DNA of 64,000 nucleotides. It comes from Nannocystis sp. RBIL2. GTDB lineage: Bacteria; Myxococcota_A; Polyangia; Nannocystales; Nannocystaceae. The notes beneath the pieces are model-generated. The model made no database searches. It saw only the letters and a program-made list of their open reading frames with translations, and was not told the DNA's origin. The first letter of the stretch is position 1, and every line of letters starts with the position of its first letter. Shown piece after piece: positions 8,699 through 57,465 of the stretch. Made by a program: the position numbers and the translations under genes. The DNA is taken from NCBI RefSeq assembly GCF_026626745.1, contig NZ_JAPNJW010000002.1, positions 1,190,151-1,254,150 of the forward strand, written 5' to 3'.

Positions 8699-10783
8699 AT
8701 GTTGTCCTGCTCTGGCCTGGTCTCGCGCGCGTGCCTCACGGTCACGTGGCTCGCCCTCGCCGGCTGTTACAGCGGCCCCTCGGGCGCCATCCCTGACGAC
8801 CAGACGCCCCCGACGCGCCCGCCCGTCAGCCAGGGCCCGCTGGGCGGCCCTCAGCTCTCGCCTCTCGAGCTCGACGCGCTCTCGCCCGACCCTGCGCCGG
8901 GCGGCGTCGCCTTCGACCTCCACGTCACCGGCGCCGGCTTCACGCGCTCCAGCGTCGTCGTCGTCGCCGGCCAGGAGCTGCCGACCACCTTCGTCTCGGG
9001 CGGCGAGTTGCACGCTCACAGCGGCCCGCGCAAGCGCGGCGATTACGAGGTGCTGGTCCGCCGCGACGACGAGGAGTCGCGCCCGCTGACCCTCGCCGTC
9101 GAACGCTCGGCCCCGCGGATCCTCGTCCCCGCCGAGGTCGGGGTCGACGAGGACACCGAGGTCGGCCTCGTCGTCGACGTCGTCGACGTCGCCGATCCCG
9201 CGGCCCTGCGCGTCCACGTGCTCGGCCTGCCGCCGGGCGCCACCTGGGACGAGCCGACCCGCACCTTCCGCTTCACCCCCGACTTCACCCAGGGCGGCGA
9301 TCGCTGGACCGTCACGGTGCTCGCCCACGACCACGAGTCGCGCGTCGAGGCCACCTTCGACGTCGTCGTCCGCGACACCATCCAGCCGCCGTGGCCCGAG
9401 GTCGTCGACACCGAGTTCCTCGACGCCAGCGGATATGTCCGTTACATCCTGTCCCAAAAGACAGATGAGTACCTCGACAGCCCGGGCTACGCCGGCCGCG
9501 AGTTCGTCGCCAAGGTCATGGTCCCGCTCGAGGTCCCGCTCGAGGGCGTGCCGGTGCGGATCGGCCTGCACGGCTTCGCCACCGCCAACCCCGGCGGCAC
9601 CGGCTCGGCCAACGAGATCCGGATCTCCCCGCACGACCCCGACAACACCTACTGGTGGGGCTACGCCGATTCGCTGCCCGACGTCGATCCCGCGGCCGGC
9701 GGCGCCGCGCCCGACTACACCATGCGCCGCGTGCTCCACCTCGTCGAGTACGTCCTGCGCCACCACCCCGAGGCCGACCCGCAGCGCGTCTACGTCTACG
9801 GCAGCTCGATGGGCGGCGCCGGGGCGATGCTGCTCGGCCTCCTGCGCGGGCGTCACTTCGCCTACATCGACGCGCGCCTCGGCCAGGCGATCGCGCGCAA
9901 TCACCGGCCGTCGCGGATCACCCAGCTGTCCGGCTGGTGGGGCGCGCCGGAGCTCGACCTCGACGGCGGCGGCGGCCTGTCGGCCTGGGATCACATGGAT
10001 CTGACGCGCGCCCTCGCCGAGTCAGTCGAGGCCCGCGACCAGTTCCTGTTCCTCAAGCACGGCAAGGACGACCCGACCATCCACTTCGGCGCCACCGTCC
10101 TGCCGAGCCCGCGCACCGGCGAGAGCTTCTATCAGGCGCTGCAGAGCCGCGGCGTCGGTCACTTCGCCATCTGGGACGAGGGCGGCCACGGCGTCGCCGA
10201 TCCTGTCCTCGGGGACAGCTGGTGGGCCGGCTCGTGGGCGCCGATCAGCGGCGACGAAGCCACGCTGCGCCGCGACCGGGCGTTCCCCGCCTTCTCGTAC
10301 TCCTCGCTCGACGACGACCCCGGCGTCGGCGTCGGCAACGGCAAGCAGGACTGGAGCGCCAACGCGGGCTTCGCCGGCGAGGTCGCCATCGCCGGCGACA
10401 CCGGCTGGGACGGCGCCATCGCCGGCGCGCTCGGCCGGTTCCTCCGCTGGGACGGCGCCTCGGTGGTCGACACCGTCGATCGCCTGCAATTCGCCCTGCG
10501 CGTCCACGCAGGCGACGGCGCCGACCCGCCGGCCCCCGGCTACCCGAGCGAGGGCGACCGCGTGATGGCAGAGCTGCCCGCGTTCGTCGACGTGACCCCG
10601 CGCCGCGCCCAGGCCTTCCGCTGTCACCCCGGCGAGCGCGTCGCCTGGTCCTTCGGCCAGGTCCACGGCGAGGTGGTCGCCGGCCCCGACGGCAGCGTCA
10701 CGATCCCCGCCCTGCCGCTGACCGACACCTGGACAAATCTGGTCCTGCGCCGCACGCTCACGGTGATCGCCGCCTCGCACTGA
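8699..10783 (+). CDS. lipoprotein, alpha/beta-hydrolase fold (esterase/peptidase-like)
   Basis: ORF 8591..10783; Met at 8699 MLSCSGLVSRACLTVTWLALAGC (lipobox LAGC); nucleophile elbow GSSMGGAGA. Confidence 0.7.
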   Translation: MLSCSGLVSRACLTVTWLALAGCYSGPSGAIPDDQTPPTRPPVSQGPLGGPQLSPLELDALSPDPAPGGVAFDLHVTGAGFTRSSVVVVAGQELPTTFVSGGELHAHSGPRKRGDYEVLVRRDDEESRPLTLAVERSAPRILVPAEVGVDEDTEVGLVVDVVDVADPAALRVHVLGLPPGATWDEPTRTFRFTPDFTQGGDRWTVTVLAHDHESRVEATFDVVVRDTIQPPWPEVVDTEFLDASGYVRYILSQKTDEYLDSPGYAGREFVAKVMVPLEVPLEGVPVRIGLHGFATANPGGTGSANEIRISPHDPDNTYWWGYADSLPDVDPAAGGAAPDYTMRRVLHLVEYVLRHHPEADPQRVYVYGSSMGGAGAMLLGLLRGRHFAYIDARLGQAIARNHRPSRITQLSGWWGAPELDLDGGGGLSAWDHMDLTRALAESVEARDQFLFLKHGKDDPTIHFGATVLPSPRTGESFYQALQSRGVGHFAIWDEGGHGVADPVLGDSWWAGSWAPISGDEATLRRDRAFPAFSYSSLDDDPGVGVGNGKQDWSANAGFAGEVAIAGDTGWDGAIAGALGRFLRWDGASVVDTVDRLQFALRVHAGDGADPPAPGYPSEGDRVMAELPAFVDVTPRRAQAFRCHPGERVAWSFGQVHGEVVAGPDGSVTIPALPLTDTWTNLVLRRTLTVIAASH

Positions 10784-11100: not shown

Positions 11101-12120
11101 ATGCCTCCCGTGCGCGACCCGCGGGTGCTCACGGCTGGCCTGGCGGCCGCTCTCGCCTGCGGGGAGCCGGCGCCCGCTGCTGCGCCCGAGGAGGACGCGC
11201 CCGCACCGACCTCGCGCCCCGCCCCGCGCCCACTCGTCCACCTCGATCCGCTCGGCCCCCGCGACCTCGACCCCGCGCGCGGGTCCTCGCCTCGCCTCAC
11301 CGTCCACCTCGAGCCGGTCGACGCCCGCGACCTCGACCTCCTGGCGCGCTGGCCCTCGCTCGCGCACTACCCCCGTGTCCCGCAGGTGCTCGCCGCCGGC
11401 CTGCGCGCGCGCGACCCCGCCGCGATCTTCCGCGGCATGGAGCTCGCCTTCGAGCCCGATCGCTGGGCCGAGATCGACGCCTGGGAGCGCCTCGGCCACA
11501 TCCGCCTCGGCGATCCCGCCGGCTTCTGCCGCACCGACGCCGGCAGCCCCGTGCGGCTGTCCCCTGGGACATACGACCTCGGCTGCCTCGGCGGCTTCCT
11601 CGAGGGCGTCCGCCTGCTGTGGTTGCCGCGACTCGAGCTCGCGGACCTCGTGCCCTGCGATCCGCCCGCCGGCTTCGAGTCGTGCCAGGACGGCGCCCAC
11701 GCCGGCCGCGCCGCCCTCCTGCAGATAGCGGCGCGCCTGCCCGCCGATGACCTCCCCCACGGCCTCGAGCTGCTCGAGCTGCGCCTCGCCGAGCTCGGCC
11801 CCGACGCCTTGATCGCCGCCCTCGTCCCCGACGCGCTCAACCTCTGCAGCGTCTCGCACCGGGCCCGCGCCCGCGGCGGCGAGCGCATGTACCATCACAT
11901 GATGATCGTCGACCCCGCCCGCGATCGCCTCGGCCGCGTGCGCGTGTTCGACACCACCGGCGCCGCCGGCGTCGCCTGGCGGTCGATGCGACCCGAGCGC
12001 CTGCACGGCTACGCGCGCCGCCTCCTGGCCCTCCACGACACCTTCCGCTACGACCCCGAGTCCGCCCGGCTCACCTGCCTCCCCGTGCGCCCGCCGGACG
12101 GCGAAATCACAGGTCCTTGA
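11101..12120 (+). CDS. hypothetical protein, probable lipoprotein
   Basis: Strong GC3 codon bias in the + frame; N-terminus MPPVRDPRVLTAGLAAALACG; the overlapping minus-strand ORF 11014..12036 is a low-complexity shadow. Confidence 0.55.
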   Translation: MPPVRDPRVLTAGLAAALACGEPAPAAAPEEDAPAPTSRPAPRPLVHLDPLGPRDLDPARGSSPRLTVHLEPVDARDLDLLARWPSLAHYPRVPQVLAAGLRARDPAAIFRGMELAFEPDRWAEIDAWERLGHIRLGDPAGFCRTDAGSPVRLSPGTYDLGCLGGFLEGVRLLWLPRLELADLVPCDPPAGFESCQDGAHAGRAALLQIAARLPADDLPHGLELLELRLAELGPDALIAALVPDALNLCSVSHRARARGGERMYHHMMIVDPARDRLGRVRVFDTTGAAGVAWRSMRPERLHGYARRLLALHDTFRYDPESARLTCLPVRPPDGEITGP

Positions 12121-13859: not shown

Positions 13860-14267
13860 TCAGAACTCTCGCACGTCCTCGAAGGTCGTCCGGGCGGCGA
13901 TGGTTTCCTCGTCGAGGTTGAGCAGGATCGGCAGCGTCTCCTGCTGCCAGTCGTCCTCCTGCAGGCGGCGGACCAGCACCGGCCCGGGCAGCAGCAGGTA
14001 CACCAGCTCGACGATGTCCATGATCACGTAGAAGCCGTTGGAGTTGCAGAACTCGAGCTCGGTGAAGTCGAGCACGCTGCGCTGGATCTCGCGCTTCGGC
14101 AAGATCTCGCGCAGGTCCTGCAGCAGGGCCGACAGATAGCGATAGGGGTTGTCGATGCGGACCACGCCCGAGAACGTGAGGGAGAAGTTCCCCTCGTCCT
14201 CGCGGGCGACGCAGTGGAACACACTGACGCCGCCGTCCATGATCTCGCCGTAGGTGAGGACGTTCAT
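13860..14267 (-). CDS. SiaC-like DUF1987 partner-switch protein
   Basis: ORF 13860..14627 trimmed to Met MNVLTYGEIMDGG (the upstream part is R-rich noise); about 135 aa; RIDNPYRYLSALLQDL and LEFCNSNGFYVIMDIVELV resemble the SiaC/DUF1987 SYPEN...LNTSS pattern. Confidence 0.55.
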   Translation of the reverse strand: MNVLTYGEIMDGGVSVFHCVAREDEGNFSLTFSGVVRIDNPYRYLSALLQDLREILPKREIQRSVLDFTELEFCNSNGFYVIMDIVELVYLLLPGPVLVRRLQEDDWQQETLPILLNLDEETIAARTTFEDVREF

Positions 14268-19570: not shown

Positions 19571-20314
19571 GTGAGCGGCCGGCGCTCGGACGGACCTGTC
19601 CCATCGGACACCCTCGCGGCCCTCGACCGCGCCCGCGACCAGGCCGGCCCGCACCTCTGGTTGGTCCCCACTCCGCCCGCCACCGGCGACGCCGACGACG
19701 CCCTGCGCGAGCTCGACGACCTGCTCGCCCGCGGCGAGTTCGACGAGCCCGCCGTCGCCCGCCTGGTGGCCCTGGCGCCGCGCGCCCCGGGCCGCCTGCG
19801 GGCCGTCGTGGCCGCCCTCGCGGCCGCAGGCAGCCCCGCCGCGGTGGCCGGCCTGCTCACCCTGCCGCAGGTCCCCGGCGCGCTCGAGGCGGCCGCCCGG
19901 GCCCTCGCCCGCGGCCTCACCCGCGCCCTGCCCGGCTCCGCCGCGGCGCCGGTGTTCTTCGCCCTCGACTTCCGCGGCTCGCGAGCGCGGCCGTTCCCGG
20001 ACCTGCTGCGGCGCGCCCAGCTGGTCGCCGCCGATCCGAGCGGCGCCCTCCGGCTCGACGTCCTCCGCGTCGACGGCAAGCCCGCCTACCGCCTGTCCTT
20101 TTGGCCAGACACGATCCCGCCGCGCCCGCGCGCCGAGCTCGCCCGCGCCTGCGCCGCCGACCTCGCGCTGCTCCACGGCCGCCTCGCGCGCCTCCGCGGC
20201 GCCCGCCTGTGGCTGAACGGCTTCTGCTTCCCTGACGACGGCCCGGTGTCGGTCGCCGCTCAGGGCCACCTGCTGGTCGCGTGGCTGACATGGTCTGAGG
20301 GACATGCCCCGTGA
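19571..20314 (+). CDS. hypothetical protein
   Basis: GTG start 1 nt after the smpB stop; high GC3; no recognisable motif. Confidence 0.5.
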   Translation: MSGRRSDGPVPSDTLAALDRARDQAGPHLWLVPTPPATGDADDALRELDDLLARGEFDEPAVARLVALAPRAPGRLRAVVAALAAAGSPAAVAGLLTLPQVPGALEAAARALARGLTRALPGSAAAPVFFALDFRGSRARPFPDLLRRAQLVAADPSGALRLDVLRVDGKPAYRLSFWPDTIPPRPRAELARACAADLALLHGRLARLRGARLWLNGFCFPDDGPVSVAAQGHLLVAWLTWSEGHAP

Positions 20315-27717: not shown

Positions 27718-27783
27718 CTGCAAGTGAGTGCTCACTCACCGTGCCACGGCTCCAGGACGGTTGCAAGTGAGTGCTCACTCAGG
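27718..27783. promoter_or_regulatory. putative TetR operator pair in the divergent promoter region
   Basis: Two identical copies of CTGCAAGTGAGTGCTCACTCA (27718-27740 and 27761-27783), each with dyad AGTGAG-TG-CTCACT, located between the monooxygenase start (27707) and the tetR start (27800). Confidence 0.5.
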
Positions 27784-27799: not shown

Positions 27800-28423
27800 A
27801 TGGCCACGCGCGAAGACGATCCAGGGCCGGTGCGCGGCGTCGAGCGCATCGTCCGCGCCGCGATCGAAGTGATCGCGGAGCGCGGCTTTCGAGGCGCCGC
27901 GACCAGCGAGATCGCTAGGCGGGCGGGCGTCGCCGAGGGCACGATCTTCCGCCACTTCAAGACCAAGCAGCTGCTGCTCGACCACATCCTCGAGCCGTTC
28001 GTCGAGCGGGTGCTCGCGCCCATCGCCTTCCGCGACCTGCACCGGCTGATCGACACCGACTACCCGGACTTCGCCGAATTCCTGCGGGAGTTCGCGCGCA
28101 ACCGCCTCGCGGTCGCGCGCGAGCACGTGCCGGCGCTGCGGATCTTCTTACAAGAAGTCCCGCTCAGCCCGGAGCTGCGGACGATGGTGTTCCGCCACAT
28201 CGGCCGCCACGTCATCCCCGAGCTGCTGGCAGTCATCCGCAAGTACCAGGCGCGCGGACAGATCCGGAACGACCCCCCGGAGACCGTCCTGCGGCTCCTC
28301 ATGAGCGCCCTGGGCGGCTACATCATCACGCGCCTGGCCATCCTGCCCGACTACCCGTGGGACGACGACCGCGAGATCGAGCTCACCATCGGCGCGATGT
28401 CCCGCGGCCTGCGCCCCGACTGA
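27800..28423 (+). CDS. TetR/AcrR-family transcriptional regulator
   Basis: ORF 27728..28423, Met MATRED at 27800; HTH GFRGAATSEIARRAGVAEGTIFRHFKTKQ. Confidence 0.85.
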   Translation: MATREDDPGPVRGVERIVRAAIEVIAERGFRGAATSEIARRAGVAEGTIFRHFKTKQLLLDHILEPFVERVLAPIAFRDLHRLIDTDYPDFAEFLREFARNRLAVAREHVPALRIFLQEVPLSPELRTMVFRHIGRHVIPELLAVIRKYQARGQIRNDPPETVLRLLMSALGGYIITRLAILPDYPWDDDREIELTIGAMSRGLRPD

Positions 28424-29000
28424 CCTGTCCTCTCGGGCCAGCCTCAGACGCGCGCCCTCAGGACGTCGCCTCACCTGTTCCTGAGGTCCTGTCCTTTCGA
28501 ACAGCCTCTCGCGCGTTCTAGCGACGTCATCTCGCGGAACCCGGAGTCTGCCGACACAGCGCCTGTCCTTTCGACCAGCCTCACGAGCTCTCGAGACCGC
28601 CGAGGTACCGGTCGCATCGCTATCTCACTCGGAGCTCGGACTCTGCCCGGCACCCTTCTGTCCTCTCGACCAGCCTCACGCGCGATCCTCGGACGTCACC
28701 TCACTCGGAACTCGGACTCTGCCCGGCACCCTCCTGTCCTCTCGACCAGCCTCACGCGCGCTCCTCGGACGTCACCTCACTGGGCACTCGGACTCTGCCC
28801 GAAGCACACCTGTCCTTTCGACCATCACGCGCGTGCTGCAGGCGTCATCTCACGCGGAACTCGGAGCCTGCACGTCGAGCTCCTGTCCTTTCGACCAGCC
28901 TCCCGCGCGCGCCCCCGAGATGTCCGCCGCACGCCTGAGCCTGCCTGACGACGTCCTGCCCTTCTCACAGTCTCACGTACGCACCCGCCGGACGTCGCCT
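28424..29000. repeat. degenerate intergenic tandem array, about 8 units of 65-95 nt, each beginning CCTGTCCTYTCGAMCAGCCTC
   Basis: Read directly: units start at about 28424, 28488, 28562, 28657, 28733, 28809, 28883, 28956; units 4 and 5 are about 90% identical; no ORF with coding-like codon usage. Confidence 0.8.
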
Positions 29001-29073
29001 TGTTCCTGCTCCTGCCCCTCAGCAGCTGGTTCGGCCTCCTGCGCCCGCGCGCCGCGGTGCTACTCTGGCGCAC

Positions 29074-30780
29074 GTGTTCGGCTCGCTCCCGCCGCCGCCG
29101 CGGCGCTACTTGCCCGCGCGCGTGCGCCTCGATCGGCTCGCCGATCTCGAGGCCTGCTACGGCGAGCTCGGCGCGCGACCGTTGCCGGCCGACGATCCAT
29201 GGATCCTCGAGCAATGGCTACGCGACTGGTCCGAGCTCGAGAGCCACCTCGCCGAGGCCCAGGCGCGGCGACAGATCGCCACCAGCTGCAGCGCCGACGA
29301 GCCCGAGGCTGCGCGCGCCTGGCTCGTCCACGTCGACGTCCTCGGCCCCGCCTGCAAACCGCTGCGCCACGGCCTCACGCGGCGGCTCGTCGAGCACCCG
29401 GCGGCAGCTCGCCTCCCGCCCGGCCACGCCTGCGCCCTCGCGGTGCTGCGCAACCAGGCCGACCTCCACCGCCCCGCCCTCGTCCCGCTCGAGGCCGCCG
29501 AGCAGCACCTGTGCGCTGCCTACGGCCAGCTGCGGGCCGGCATGCGGTTCCCCTGGGACGGCGCCGACACTCCGCTGGCCCACGTCGAGCGCAGCGAGGA
29601 CGACCCTGACCGTTCGCGGCGCGAGGCCGCCTGGCGCACCGTCGCGGCCGAGTTCCGCGCAGTGAAGCCCGAGCTCGACCACCTGTTCGACCGCCTCCTC
29701 GACAACCGCAGGGCCCAGGCCGCCGCCGCCGAGCTGCCCGAGTACCGCGCCTATCGCTTCCGCCGCCTCGACCGCCTCGCCTACGGCCCCGCAGACTGCC
29801 TCGCGCTGCACGAGGCCATCGCCGCCGAGTTCGTCCCCCTCGCCGGCCTCGTCCTCCGTCGCCGCGCCGCCGCCCTCGGCCTCGACGTCCTGCGCCCGTG
29901 GGACCTCGGGGCCCTGCCCGGCGGCCCGCTCGTCCCGTTCACCCGCGAGGAGGCGCTGATCGCCGGCTGCGCCCGCGCCTTCGAGGCCGTCGACCCCGAG
30001 TTCGCCCGCCAGTTCTCGCGCCTCGCCGAACATGGCCTTTTGGACCTGATGTCGAGGCCAGGCAAGGCCGCCGGCGCCTTCCAGGTCCACCTCCACGCCA
30101 GCGGCCTCCCCTTCGTGTTCGCCGGCGCCGTCGGCCGCCACGAGGACGTGCTCACCGTCTTGCACGAGTCCGGCCACGCCTTCCACGCCCTCGCCTGCGC
30201 CGGCGATGCGCTGATCTGGAACCGCCAACCCCCGATCGAATTCTGCGAGGTCGCCGGCATGGGCATGGAGCTGCTCGCCGCCGCTCACCTGGGCGCCTTC
30301 TACGACGCCGACACCTGCACCCGCGCGGCGCGCCACCAGCTCGAGCAGCTCGTCCTGTTCCTCCCGCACGCCGCCGCCATCGACGCCTTCCAGCACTGGG
30401 TCTACACCCGCCCCGACGAGGCCAGCGACCGTGTGGCTCGCGACGCCGCCTGGCTCGCGCAGCACGGGCGGCTGTGCCCCGGCGTCGACTGGAGCGGCCT
30501 CGAGGCCGACCGCGCCGCCCTGTGGGGGCGTCGCCTGCACGTGTTCGAGCTGCCCTTCTACTACATCGAGTACGCGATCGCCGGCCTCGGCGCAGTGCAA
30601 CTCCACCGCCGCGCCCTCGCCGAGCCCGCCGCCGCCGTCGCCGACCTCCGCCGCGCCCTCGCCCTCGGCGCCCGCGCCCGCCTGCCCGACCTGTTCGCCG
30701 CCGCCGGTCTGAACTTCGGGACAGATCGCAGCACCGTGCGCCGGGCCGCCGCCGCCTGCCGCGAGCTCCTCGACCTGTGA
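29074..30780 (+). CDS. pepF: M3-family oligoendopeptidase F
   Basis: GTG start; zinc-binding HESGHAFH (HExxH) and overall PepF-like length and pattern. Confidence 0.8.
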   Translation: MFGSLPPPPRRYLPARVRLDRLADLEACYGELGARPLPADDPWILEQWLRDWSELESHLAEAQARRQIATSCSADEPEAARAWLVHVDVLGPACKPLRHGLTRRLVEHPAAARLPPGHACALAVLRNQADLHRPALVPLEAAEQHLCAAYGQLRAGMRFPWDGADTPLAHVERSEDDPDRSRREAAWRTVAAEFRAVKPELDHLFDRLLDNRRAQAAAAELPEYRAYRFRRLDRLAYGPADCLALHEAIAAEFVPLAGLVLRRRAAALGLDVLRPWDLGALPGGPLVPFTREEALIAGCARAFEAVDPEFARQFSRLAEHGLLDLMSRPGKAAGAFQVHLHASGLPFVFAGAVGRHEDVLTVLHESGHAFHALACAGDALIWNRQPPIEFCEVAGMGMELLAAAHLGAFYDADTCTRAARHQLEQLVLFLPHAAAIDAFQHWVYTRPDEASDRVARDAAWLAQHGRLCPGVDWSGLEADRAALWGRRLHVFELPFYYIEYAIAGLGAVQLHRRALAEPAAAVADLRRALALGARARLPDLFAAAGLNFGTDRSTVRRAAAACRELLDL

Positions 30781-30995
30781 CGATATCTGTCCCTCAGGAC
30801 ATCTCGCTGCGGCGTCGGCCCTGCGATGTCAGATGTCCCGAAGGGCATTTCGCTGCGGCGTCAGCCCTGCGATGTCAGATGTCCCGAAGGGCATTTCGCT
30901 GCGGCGTCAGCCATGCCGCTGACGGCCCCACGCGACCTGTCCTTCGAGCCAGCTCGCGGCAGCCGGCCGGCCTGCCGCGAGCTCCTCGACCTGTG
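30755..30995. repeat. 25-bp direct repeat (CCTGCCGCGAGCTCCTCGACCTGTG) flanking a 191-bp insert with an internal 48-bp tandem duplication
   Basis: Copy 1 at 30755-30779 is the last codons of pepF; copy 2 at 30971-30995; the insert carries GGACA/TGTCC palindromes and two copies of CGCTGCGGCGTCAGCCCTGCGATGTCAGATGTCCCGAAGGGCATTT. Confidence 0.8.
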
Positions 30996-30997
30996 GC

Positions 30998-45662: not shown

Positions 45663-45985
45663 GCCTCGTGCGGCCCCAAGCGTCGAGGCAACCATCTGCC
45701 TGAGTCTCTTGCGGCCACCCCCGACAATCGGACCTCCGCCTGAGCCGCGAGCTCTCGCGCCGCGAGGCAGCCGTCATCGGACCTTCGCCCGGACCCTCGA
45801 GCTGCCCCTCAGGGCACCGAGGCGGCGCCCGACAATCGGGCCTCAGCCTGAGCCATGAGCTCTCGCCCCGAGGCAGCCGTCATCGGACCTTCGCCCGAAC
45901 CATCGAGCTCCCGCCCCAGGGCACCGCGGCCACCCCCGGACCTCCCCTCAGCCTCGAGCTCCCGCTCCGGACCTGCCTCGTCCTG
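45636..45985. repeat. tandem repeat (about 110 nt x2 plus partial copies) seeded from the 3' end of lspA copy 1
   Basis: CCGACAATCGGACC(G/T)CCGCCTGAGCC occurs at 45643 (last codons of lspA), 45722 and 45836; full units 45717-45828 and 45829-45934. Confidence 0.8.
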
Positions 45986-53952: not shown

Positions 53953-56105
53953 TCCGCCCGCGCGCCGCCGCCTCGCCTGCGCCCGCGTCGGCGAGCGGCG
54001 TCGTCGCGCTGGGTGTCTCGGCGAGTAACCTGGCCCAAAGCGCCTGCGACGGCCCGGCGCTGGACGTCGTGTCGCGCGAGCTGGCGTCGCCGCTTCGCGG
54101 CTTCAGGGTCCGTGCGAGCTCCTCGCTCGAGCTCGCGGGGCAGGACTTCCCGCTGCACCCGCCCGCTTCGGCCATGCCAGGCGTCGACGAGATGTCTGCG
54201 AGCTCCTCGCTCGCGGTCGTCTCGCCGCCTCTACTTCTTCGCGGCTTCGAAGCAAGCACTTGCACTGGGCTTGAGGTCGCGTCGCTGCGCTCGTCCGCTT
54301 CGGTCGACGAGACGCCGACGAGTTCGCCGCGCGAGGCCGCGTCGCCGCTTCCACTTCTCTGCCGCTTCGAAGCAAGCGCGAGCACTCGGCTCGAGGTCGC
54401 GTCGCTGCGGTCGACCGCCTCGGTCATGCAAGTTGTCGGCGAGACGCTGGCGAGCTCCTCGCGCGAGGCCGCGTCACCGCTTCCACTTCCTCGCGACTTC
54501 GAGGCAAGCGCGAGCACCCGGCCCGAGGTCGCGTCGCCGCTTCCGCCCGCTTCGGTCATGCGTGGTGTCGACGAGACGCTGGCGAGCTCCTCGCCCGAGG
54601 CCGCGTCACCGCTTCCACTTCCTCGCGACTTCGAGGCAAGCGCGAGCACCCGGCCCGAGGTCGCGTCGCCGCTTCCGCCCGCTTCGGTCATGCGTGGTGT
54701 CGACGAGACGCCGGTGAGCTCCGCGCCCGAGATCGCATCGCCGCTTCTTCGCAATTTCGACGCGAGCGCGAGCTCCTCGCCCGAGTCCCTGTCGCAGGAC
54801 GTCGCCCTGCGGCTGTCCACTTCGGTCGTCTCGCCGCTCCCACTCGCCCGCGTCGCGCACGCGAGCTCGCCGCTCCCTCGTCGCAACTTCCTCCGCGCCG
54901 CGCTCTCGCCCGCAGCGCCTTGCGTCCTCTTCTTCGCGCTCGGGCTCGGCTGCGGGGCCCCTCCGACGGGAGTGCGCGCCGAACCGGGGACGCTGGTGTT
55001 CACGCCGGCGGCGCAGCGTCTCGAGCTGCGACTCGTGAATCACGGCGCGGCGCCCGTCCCGTTGACGCGGATCCGCTTCGACACCCGCACCCCCGACTGG
55101 GGCGCCTTCTCGATCGAGAACCGCGAGTACCCGCGGGAGATCGCTGCTGGCGGAGCCGTGAGCCTGCGCCTCCGCGTCGACCGCGACCACTTCGATCGCA
55201 CCGGCGCCTCCGGCTCCGGCAGCGCGCGCCTCCTCTTCGCGGCGGGAGAGGCGCCCCAGATCGTCGAGCTCCGCTGGGAGCCACCCGATCTCGCGAGCGA
55301 TCTGCGGCGCACGGCGATCCGCACCGCCCTGGCGCTCGCGCTCGTCGCGCTGGCGTGGATCTCGACGCGCCGCACCCGGCTGAACTGGACCGCCTGGCTG
55401 CCGGTGGTGGCCGTCCTGGCGCTGTTCCCGTTCGGTCCGGGCCTGTGCTTCGACGGCCTCGGCAGCAGCCTTTCCGCCGCGGACGTCGAGCAGTGCGCCG
55501 CGGGACGGGGAGGTGCTTCGCTGTCGCTGATCGCCGTCGGCGAAGGCTGGCTCGTCTATCTCGTCGCCCTCGTGCTCGCCGGTCTCGGTCGCCTCGTCGA
55601 CCGGGCTGCGCTGGCCCGCCGCCTGGCGTCGCGCGACCTCGCCCTCGCCGCCGCATTCGCCGGCCCTTTGCTGGCCTTTGGCACCCTCGATCCACGGCAG
55701 CTCGTGGGGGAGCAAGCAGCGGGGCTCGTCGGCGGTGCTGCGATCCCCCCCGCCTGGGGAATCTTCGTGCAACCGATCGCCGCTGCCGTCGCCCTCGCGG
55801 TCGCGGCCGCGCCGCCGGCAGGACGGCTCGAGCGGCTCGTCTTCGCGGCGGCGTTCGTCGCCTGTTTCCTCGGCGGTGGTGTGCCCGCGACGGTACTCGC
55901 CGGCAGCGGCCACGGCCTCGTGCTGTTCATCGGCGCAGTCGTGGCGGCGGCGAAGATCGCTGCGGTCGTGTGGTTCGTGCAGCGGCTGCACGCGTCGGCC
56001 ACCGGCTCGCGTGCGCGCGCCGCTCTCTTCTTTCTCGAGCGGGCCGCGATGCCCCTGGCGATCGCCAATCTGCTGGCGACGTCGGTCTACGCCCTGCTGT
56101 GGTGA
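53949..56105 (+). CDS. repeat-containing protein with Tat/lipobox-like internal signal and a multi-TM C-terminal domain (start uncertain)
   Basis: ATGA overlap with the upstream gene; frame open through the 120-bp repeat array; PRRNFLRAALSPAAPCVLFFALGLGC looks like a twin-arginine lipoprotein signal; C-terminal 300 aa has at least 6 hydrophobic helices; the true start may lie downstream of the repeats. Confidence 0.45.
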   Translation: MIRPRAAASPAPASASGVVALGVSASNLAQSACDGPALDVVSRELASPLRGFRVRASSSLELAGQDFPLHPPASAMPGVDEMSASSSLAVVSPPLLLRGFEASTCTGLEVASLRSSASVDETPTSSPREAASPLPLLCRFEASASTRLEVASLRSTASVMQVVGETLASSSREAASPLPLPRDFEASASTRPEVASPLPPASVMRGVDETLASSSPEAASPLPLPRDFEASASTRPEVASPLPPASVMRGVDETPVSSAPEIASPLLRNFDASASSSPESLSQDVALRLSTSVVSPLPLARVAHASSPLPRRNFLRAALSPAAPCVLFFALGLGCGAPPTGVRAEPGTLVFTPAAQRLELRLVNHGAAPVPLTRIRFDTRTPDWGAFSIENREYPREIAAGGAVSLRLRVDRDHFDRTGASGSGSARLLFAAGEAPQIVELRWEPPDLASDLRRTAIRTALALALVALAWISTRRTRLNWTAWLPVVAVLALFPFGPGLCFDGLGSSLSAADVEQCAAGRGGASLSLIAVGEGWLVYLVALVLAGLGRLVDRAALARRLASRDLALAAAFAGPLLAFGTLDPRQLVGEQAAGLVGGAAIPPAWGIFVQPIAAAVALAVAAAPPAGRLERLVFAAAFVACFLGGGVPATVLAGSGHGLVLFIGAVVAAAKIAAVVWFVQRLHASATGSRARAALFFLERAAMPLAIANLLATSVYALLW
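54060..54900. repeat. tandem array of about 7 units of about 120 nt (two adjacent near-identical copies at about 54453-54572 and 54573-54692)
   Basis: Unit GAGACGCTGGCGAGCTCCTCGCNCGAGGCCGCGTCACCGCTTCCACTTCCTCGCGACTTCGAGGCAAGCGCGAGCACCCGGCCCGAGGTCGCGTCGCCGCTTCCGCCCGCTTCGGTCATGCGTGGTGTCGAC; all six frames stay open across it. Confidence 0.85.
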
Positions 56106-57420: not shown

Positions 57421-57426
57421 GTCGGC

Positions 57427-57465
57427 TGTCCTGAGGGACATGTCCTCACGGGCATGTCCCTCGGC
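57427..57465. repeat. GGACATGYCC-family element
   Basis: CTGTCCtgaGGGACATGTCCtcacGGGCATGTCCC downstream of the DUF4388 gene. Confidence 0.75.

Follow-up and report, generated by a model that had tools for sequence, protein, structure and literature searches.

The DNA analysed here is a stretch of 64,000 nucleotides from Nannocystis sp. RBIL2 (the window), and the subject of our analysis is a tandem array of short direct repeats that lies between two co-oriented genes. On the plus strand, a gene for a TetR-family regulator (tetR; 27800-28423, 207 aa, Pfam TetR_N with E = 1.8e-15) ends in a TGA stop codon at 28421-28423, and downstream of it stands a gene for a PepF-like M3 oligoendopeptidase (pepF; 29074-30780, 568 aa, Pfam Peptidase_M3). 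By direct reading the array occupies 28424-29027 and consists of eight head-to-tail units of 64-95 bp each; its first base adjoins the tetR stop codon, so that the first CCTGTCC stands at 28424. The units share a common opening, CCTGTCCTYTCGACCAGCCTC, which belongs to an element of approximately 21 bp, CCTGTCCYTTCGACCAGCCTC, called the head in the following, while the remainder of each unit is called the tail. We read the array as a young, copy-number-variable, non-coding minisatellite (a variable-number tandem repeat, VNTR) and would put the probability of this reading at roughly 0.6.

All eight units are read on the plus strand. Unit 1 (28424-28487, 64 bp) has a degenerate head, CCTGTCCTCTCGGGCCAGCCTC, and its 3' end is formed by a hairpin, GCCTCACCTGTTCCTGAGGT (28468-28487), which is weakly terminator-like. 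It is followed by unit 2 (28488-28561, 74 bp), unit 3 (28562-28656, 95 bp), units 4 and 5 (28657-28732 and 28733-28808, 76 bp each) and units 6, 7, and 8 (28809-28881, 28882-28954, and 28955-29027, 73 bp each), the last of which is degenerate, head included. Tandem Repeats Finder (TRF) reports 28624-28909 with a period of 76, 3.8 copies, 83% matches and a score of 356, and a gap-free repeat finder returns families of 4-6 copies with spacings of 63-95 bp, together with one double step of 149 bp where a degenerate copy was skipped. The 21-nt head pattern, with at most three mismatches, has six matches in the window (five fall in the array) where shuffled sequences predict 0.02, and all array heads have the same orientation as tetR and pepF. 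Identity between units 4 and 5 is 88% (69/78); for the outer units it is 56-70% to the others. The original prediction for this DNA had described about eight degenerate tandem units beginning at the tetR stop codon, with units 4 and 5 about 90% identical, more diverged outer units, and the CTGTCC half-site of a dispersed element in each unit. These measurements agree with that description on every point, the heads being a variant of the palindrome CTGTCC-N4-GGACAG; only the right border has to be amended, as the array ends near 29027 and 29026-29073 is a separate conserved block, not a repeat unit.

The number of units differs between orthologous loci. The pepF homologues used for comparison (P0001-P0005) are all 568 aa long with 100% coverage, the pepF protein of the window being 96% identical to that of N. 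pusilla and 88% to those of N. radixulma and N. bainbridge, and L001, L002, and L021 each have a called tetR orthologue of 207 aa. In N. radixulma (L002) the tetR-pepF spacer is 45 bp long and holds one head, CCTGTCCTTTCGACCAGCCTC, directly after the tetR TGA, followed by the pepF-proximal block. One head, still intact, stands at the same place in N. bainbridge (L003), where the monooxygenase gene found upstream of tetR in the window is lost and only a remnant of tetR is left, and a metagenome relative (L020) has one head directly after a TAA stop codon. N. pusilla Na p29 (L001, L004) has approximately three units in a spacer of 327 bp, and N. exedens DSM 71 (L013) has 7-8 units of 67-74 bp in a spacer of 545 bp. 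A further contig from Logan (L019), 96% identical to the window, begins exactly at a head, as would be expected where an assembly breaks in a repeat. In the pepF tree all multi-unit arrays (window, L019, N. pusilla, and N. exedens) form one derived clade, and the genomes with a single head branch below it. It follows from the tree and the single-head loci that a single head after the tetR stop codon is the ancestral state in the genus and that the array is a later expansion, and from the series of 1, 1, 1, approximately 3, 7-8, and 8 copies at orthologous loci that the array is a derived, copy-number-variable minisatellite. The original prediction had listed an expanded satellite among its options and had called for a comparison of copy number across strains; the comparison, made here across orthologous loci, supports that option with this series and with the fast evolution of locus-specific tails.

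For the comparison of heads and tails we aligned 19 units from four loci, namely those of three reference genomes and of the L019 contig. One architecture fits all 19 units: the head, then CACGCGCG, then a variable C-rich tail. The mean column identity is 93% in the heads and 70% in the tails. Pairwise identity of the heads is equal within and between genomes (0.83 vs 0.84); for the tails the corresponding values are 0.53 and 0.44. By its position, unit 1 is the orthologue of N. pusilla Na p29 units 1 and 2, and its tail is 0.60-0.65 identical to those of the N. pusilla units. Units 2-6 (28488-28881) form a strain-private subfamily, with tails 56-85% alike, which is absent from N. pusilla Na p29, and units 7-8 (28882-29027) stand nearest to pepF and are older; their orthologues are the final units of L019 and L001, and their tails are most like those of N. 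exedens units. When the window is compared with L019, the four-fold degenerate sites of pepF are 92% identical, and identity over the final 195 bp of the spacer is 81%; within these 195 bp the head is identical at 19/19 positions and the last 48 bp (the block 29026-29073) at 100%, compared with approximately 71% in the neighbouring tails. The array tails thus diverge faster than synonymous sites. Outside the array they have no match in approximately 1 Mb of fetched Nannocystaceae DNA.

Similar middle units, old edges, lineage-specific subfamilies, and fast tails are together what we read as turnover by slippage or unequal exchange. In the genus ancestor a single head, itself a copy of a dispersed element some 21 bp long, would have followed the tetR stop codon without a gap, and in the N. 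pusilla/N. exedens clade this head would have been duplicated in tandem together with approximately 50 bp of adjacent sequence. Identical 21-bp heads about 70 bp apart could then have allowed slipped-strand mispairing or unequal recombination to add and remove whole units, and such gain and loss would account for the alike inner units, the old diverged edges, the differing numbers, and the private subfamilies. The tails carry no conserved information. The most likely effect of the array would be just a longer spacer between tetR and pepF, and we infer that it is close to neutral.

The head itself is dispersed beyond this locus. Searched against 185,579 species genomes, an exact 20-mer of the head occurs in Nannocystis only, apart from four matches in other phyla, while about four matches were expected by chance according to a calculation of our own that is not tool output. 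One head variant is identical to the CCTGTCCCCTCGACCA with which a Chloroflexota tRNA-Pro(CGG) ends (metagenome-assembled genomes L016, 2585-2661, and L058), and a relation of the head to a tRNA 3' end was therefore considered; because the four matches outside Nannocystis equal the number expected by chance, this one is treated as a coincidence. Many of the 18-mer matches in metagenomes belong to unrelated high-GC organisms, in which the reverse strand reads GGTCGARRGGACAG-N3-9-ATG as a ribosome-binding region, and were likewise set aside as chance. In each Nannocystis genome scanned the head is found again at 2-3 other loci, and there often in groups of 2-4 copies with spacings of 40-80 bp. 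Wherever a genome has both tetR and the head, the first head begins at the base after the stop codon, as it does in L006 and at 19953 in L142, a contig of another Nannocystaceae genome.

The array head is an asymmetric variant of a 16-bp palindrome, CTGTCC-N4-GGACAG, in which GACCAG replaces GGACAG. With at most one mismatch allowed, the window has 15 copies of this palindrome where 0.26 would be expected; the 21.8 kb of L142 hold 19 copies. The copies stand between genes as well as inside open reading frames (ORFs), often in 14-bp-phased pairs or small tandem clusters; on metagenome contigs there are many small clusters with 21-76-bp spacing in which palindrome and head variants are mixed. 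Examples of the dispersed element, (A)CCTGTCC-N4-GGACAG(CC), are found in the window at 1891/1905, 4128/4142, 5763, 9436/9449, 10203, 10842/10856, 19596, 30787, 57426-57455, and 59540/59553, and in L142 at 9774-9906, 10449-10536, 14120-14189, and 19953-20126. Some of these are arrays in their own right. Downstream of pepF a second array (30788-30916, 46 bp x 2.8) has units that each open with the TGTCC palindrome, and on its two sides stands a duplicated stretch of 26/27 bp from the pepF 3' end (30755-30781 and 30971-30997). N. pusilla has a single copy at the same site, and in N. exedens a segment ...CCTCGACCGTGACTCACTCG... is repeated there several times. In L142 a palindrome-led array of three 63-bp units (20000-20190) starts as TGA|CCTGTCC after one gene and ends at the ATG of the next, and another (9774-9906) has a 27-bp period. 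The tetR-pepF array is the largest example here of a recurrent palindrome-led pattern. Tandem repeats with no obvious TGTCC head also occur in the window, at 45720-45930, 54303-54747, and 11227-11368, with periods of 106, 132, and 66 bp.

Three points weigh against a near-neutral minisatellite. The head is conserved much better than the tail, across units and across species, which selection, for instance through protein binding, could explain instead of homogenisation through recombination. At five independent loci (5/5 decidable) the first head of a cluster lies at most 50 bp past the stop codon of a co-oriented gene, and this placement hints at an orientation-dependent role. The plus strand of the array has a C/G ratio of 1.72 and is 62% pyrimidine, which places it at the 99.9th percentile as the most extreme 650-nt stretch of the window, and pure neutrality does not require so strong a C skew and pyrimidine content.

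Composition and placement together bring in the possibility that the array is the untranslated tail of the tetR transcript, and that its C-rich, G-poor, and unstructured RNA loads the Rho factor and ends tetR transcription before the pepF promoter, thereby insulating both genes from each other. Rho utilization (rut) sites are C-rich, G-poor, and unstructured. In addition to the skew itself, the head clusters behind co-oriented genes and the start of the head at the base after the stop codon fit this explanation, as does predicted RNA structure, which is no better or even worse than in shuffled sequences: single units gave z-scores from -1.05 to +2.27 (the latter for unit 4), and the whole array gave z = +1.59 and -0.45 on the two strands, +1.59 being the value that is paired with the plus-strand skew. 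For the N. exedens array z = +0.41, but the N. pusilla array folds slightly better than its shuffles (z = -1.71). Furthermore, the C skew is general to the plus strand of the window (median C/G 1.22), three species manage with one head, so that eight units are not required, and the same element sits in ORFs, where it is translated. The likeness to a Rho-dependent terminator is only a compositional resemblance, and we regard a role of the array in Rho loading as unlikely.

The conservation of the head could also be explained if the heads serve a DNA-binding protein as iterated sites. This protein would be a dimeric regulator of the helix-turn-helix type or else an abundant nucleoid-associated protein, with CTGTCC-N4-GGACAG-like sites, and the array would be a multi-site platform affecting the expression of pepF or tetR or the local organisation of the DNA. 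The head columns (93% against 70% in the tails, and equally high within and between genomes), the excess of the parent palindrome in the window, and the adjacent 14-bp-phased palindrome pairs, which have the usual look of dimer sites, all speak for such a protein, and the inner unit periods of 73-76 bp correspond to approximately seven helical turns. This phasing does not hold up elsewhere, however: the periods of other clusters (21, 27, 33, 48, 51, and 63 bp) have no common helical phase. The element is also far too abundant for a local regulator, with about one copy per 1-4 kb, half of them inside genes, and the array head has lost the palindromic symmetry (GACCAG for GGACAG). Moreover, the heads are decaying in 3/8 cases in the window array and in 3/7 in N. 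exedens.

The conserved block at 29026-29073 (plus strand) holds a candidate extended -10 element, TGCTACTCT (29058-29066), which ends 7 nt before the GTG start codon of pepF. In eight loci (window, L001, L002, L003, L013, L019, L020, and L021) the sequence GGTGCTACYYT-N7-start codon is invariant while its surroundings vary, the start codon itself being either GTG or ATG. Upstream of pepF we found neither a Shine-Dalgarno sequence nor an in-frame start codon ahead of the GTG. Because the block fits an extended -10 (TGCTACYYT against TGnTAnnnT) and these two features are missing, we infer that TGCTACYYT is the putative extended -10 of pepF and that the pepF mRNA is probably leaderless, which would place the array upstream of the pepF promoter and downstream of tetR. 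In N. radixulma and L021 the interval from the head to the candidate -10 is 28-29 nt, so that the head overlaps the -35 position, as a binding site for a regulator might. As a -35 element of pepF the head fits these two loci only, and we rejected it in that role: the distance from head to pepF promoter is not conserved between loci (24, ~100, ~112, and 190 bp), in contrast to the contact with the tetR stop codon. The head is anchored to the tetR stop codon rather than to the pepF promoter, and the varying distance argues against iterated protein-binding sites as the explanation of the array, one that the original prediction had also listed and that we consider unlikely.

Candidate operators for TetR itself are of a different kind. 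Between the divergent genes for a flavin adenine dinucleotide (FAD) monooxygenase and TetR there are two copies of the palindrome GTGAGTG-CT-CACTCAC (27724-27739 and 27767-27782), both of which are conserved in five loci (window, L001, L002, L020, and L021). These are likely the TetR operators and unrelated to the array head. The possibility of operator copies in the array was dismissed, the shared 7-mer CTCACTC occurring seven times in the window with no enrichment. Two side observations concern the flanking genes in other genomes. In N. bainbridge (L003, 5423-5890) the FAD monooxygenase and most of tetR are gone and the 3' tetR remnant stays, and in N. pusilla Na p29 (L001, 5522-7227) the gene call splits pepF into two overlapping genes (196 aa and 408 aa), which indicates a frameshift or an assembly error.

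The remaining readings of the array invoke a product, either a protein or an RNA, or a CRISPR locus (clustered regularly interspaced short palindromic repeats). With respect to protein, there is no third-position GC periodicity across 28420-28960, whereas the GC content at third codon positions (GC3) of the flanking genes is approximately 0.9; the unit lengths are not multiples of three and break the frame, and on the minus strand there are stop codons in all frames in nearly every unit. On the plus strand stop codons are nearly absent, but only because that strand is pyrimidine-rich. These results rule out a coding repeat, intact or decayed, even though in genes of other genomes the head can be translated as PVPSTS. 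A degenerate CRISPR-like array is suggested by the alternation of a conserved 21-bp "repeat" with "spacers" of 50-55 bp, but the "spacers" are homologous to each other (TRF period 76, 83%; tail identity up to 85%, mean 53%), the repeat of only about 21 bp is short against the 23-47 bp or so of CRISPR repeats, and a Pfam scan of 37 ORFs of the window, with some ORF-poor gaps outside the scan, found no Cas, transposase, or Y1 domain. The spacer of just 45 bp in N. radixulma is also at odds with both readings. With all of these tests against it, a CRISPR-like or decayed coding origin has practically no chance of being correct.

Small RNAs in tandem, or else an RNA that is antisense or structured, are conceivable in view of a repetitive, intergenic array with an almost stop-free plus strand and a weak terminator-like hairpin closing unit 1. 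The only Rfam match with E <= 1, at a permissive threshold, is a spurious HOTTIP (E = 0.16), neither strand of the units holds a sigma-70-like promoter, and the z-scores of the folds given above are unremarkable. Motifs resembling sigma-54 or extracytoplasmic function (ECF) promoters (GGCAC-N5-TGTC and GGAAC-N12/17, judged by eye) were discarded, as they misfit the consensus spacing or key bases and are not conserved between units. Tails that are not conserved between species, and three species that lack the units, also speak against an RNA product, which we find very improbable. All in all, the readings of the array as small RNA, as CRISPR, and as coding sequence are rejected. The original prediction was therefore right in calling the array non-coding and not CRISPR-like; its suggestion of an array of small or antisense RNAs is not upheld.

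In contrast to the array, the dispersed element does enter genes. Whenever the head lies in an ORF with a clear coding signal it is read as CCT GTC CCT TCG ACC AGC, i.e. PVPSTS, and uses the rare CCT codon twice in genes with GC3 >= 0.9. The copies of the element inside ORFs of the window and L142 use two frames (19 and 14 cases), in which they read PV.. or LS..T, and the Cys-Pro frame is hardly ever used (2/35). This looks like an element acting at the level of DNA that is filtered by selection on the encoded peptide, a pattern on record for Rickettsia palindromic elements (PMC10969869). In one conserved membrane-protein family (alignment A2), distant homologues have a loop of about 6 residues with no copy of the element. 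At this loop position the membrane protein of L124 has two in-frame copies, PVPSTSPPVPSTSP (L124 624-665), and P0121, a protein 77% identical to it, has four in-frame copies of CACCTGTCC-N4-GRCAGC with spacings of 27, 27, and 33 bp (L142 10449-10551). Separately, the window contains a head-like match, CCTGTCCTCGCGGCCAGCCTG, at 1811-1858 in the last 16 codons of an ORF ending ...PVLAASLLALRRRRR*, a tail that we take to be like a C-terminal sorting signal; the match may be a chance resemblance or another in-frame copy.

These observations raise a broader possibility, that the array is one visible product of a self-propagating Nannocystaceae element of approximately 20 bp, (A)CCTGTCC-N4-GGACAG(CC) with TCGACCAG as a subfamily. 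Such an element would reach new sites, with a preference for positions just after stop codons or in frame within genes, and then amplify locally in tandem, making intergenic minisatellites in the first case and Pro/Ser/Thr-rich loop insertions (PVPSTSP, PVLSDS) in the second. We found no description of a dispersed palindromic element of this kind in the searchable literature, and hold its self-propagation tentatively, as a possibility short of even odds. If the element is mobile or actively amplified, it adds plasticity of genome and protein length in these very large genomes. Quite apart from this, a very abundant Nannocystaceae palindromic element marks gene ends, seeds several arrays, and expands in frame in protein loops. 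The array, for its part, is of practical use for typing strains of the N. pusilla/N. exedens group, and warns that short-read assemblies break here, as the L019 contig that ends at a head illustrates.

Among known systems, the array agrees with minisatellites or VNTRs: it is non-coding, it consists of direct units in the range of approximately 10-100 bp in numbers above chance, and its copy number differs at the same locus. Mycobacterial interspersed repetitive units (MIRUs) are direct tandem repeats of 40-100 bp that lie in one orientation in intergenic regions between co-oriented genes, at several loci and in variable copy number (PMC5056196). The array resembles them in unit length (64-95 bp), in its position between co-oriented genes, in its single orientation, in a copy number of 1 to approximately 8, and in the recurrence of the head at several genomic loci. 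It differs in sharing only the head of about 21 bp between loci, whereas MIRUs share the whole unit, and in lacking the small ORFs coupled to flanking stop and start codons that MIRUs carry: no start codon overlaps the tetR TGA, and the pepF start codon is preceded by the conserved -10-like block and not by the end of an ORF. There is no sequence relationship to MIRUs, which belong to a different phylum. The likeness to CRISPR stops at the alternation of a conserved short repeat with a longer segment; the mutual homology of the segments, the 21-bp repeat, the absence of cas genes from the ORFs scanned, and the existence of orthologous loci with a single head set the array apart.

The dispersed element has its own counterparts. 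Repetitive extragenic palindromic sequences and bacterial interspersed mosaic elements (REP/BIME), BOX elements, and ERIC elements (for enterobacterial repetitive intergenic consensus), from genomes of Gram-negative bacteria and pneumococci, are short imperfect palindromes with many dispersed copies, usually just downstream of genes and in clusters of variable size, which seed the expansion of local repeats (see also the review PMC10969869). Similarly, the array is seeded by a dispersed palindrome of 16-20 bp which is in strong excess and forms clusters, but the clusters here are direct instead of alternating, the array head is asymmetric, and about half of the copies of the family lie inside ORFs, unlike the extragenic REP/BIME of 20-40 nt. 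In the 37 window ORFs scanned with Pfam no Y1 transposase of the REP-associated type (RAYT) was seen. Rickettsia palindromic elements (RPEs) are dispersed palindromes found both between genes and in frame in unrelated protein genes, to which they add a peptide segment (PMC10969869). It is the dispersed element, not the array, that resembles them, with in-frame copies in genes and a membrane-protein loop with 0, 2, or 4 copies depending on the lineage. RPEs are about 150 bp long and usually single, whereas the element described here is about 20 bp and expands in tandem; if self-propagating, it would amount to a small-scale version of the RPEs that expands in tandem. The tetR-pepF array is therefore a bacterial intergenic minisatellite seeded by a dispersed short repeat, and ordinary as an array, while the dispersed element, which looks undescribed, is the more interesting lead of the two.

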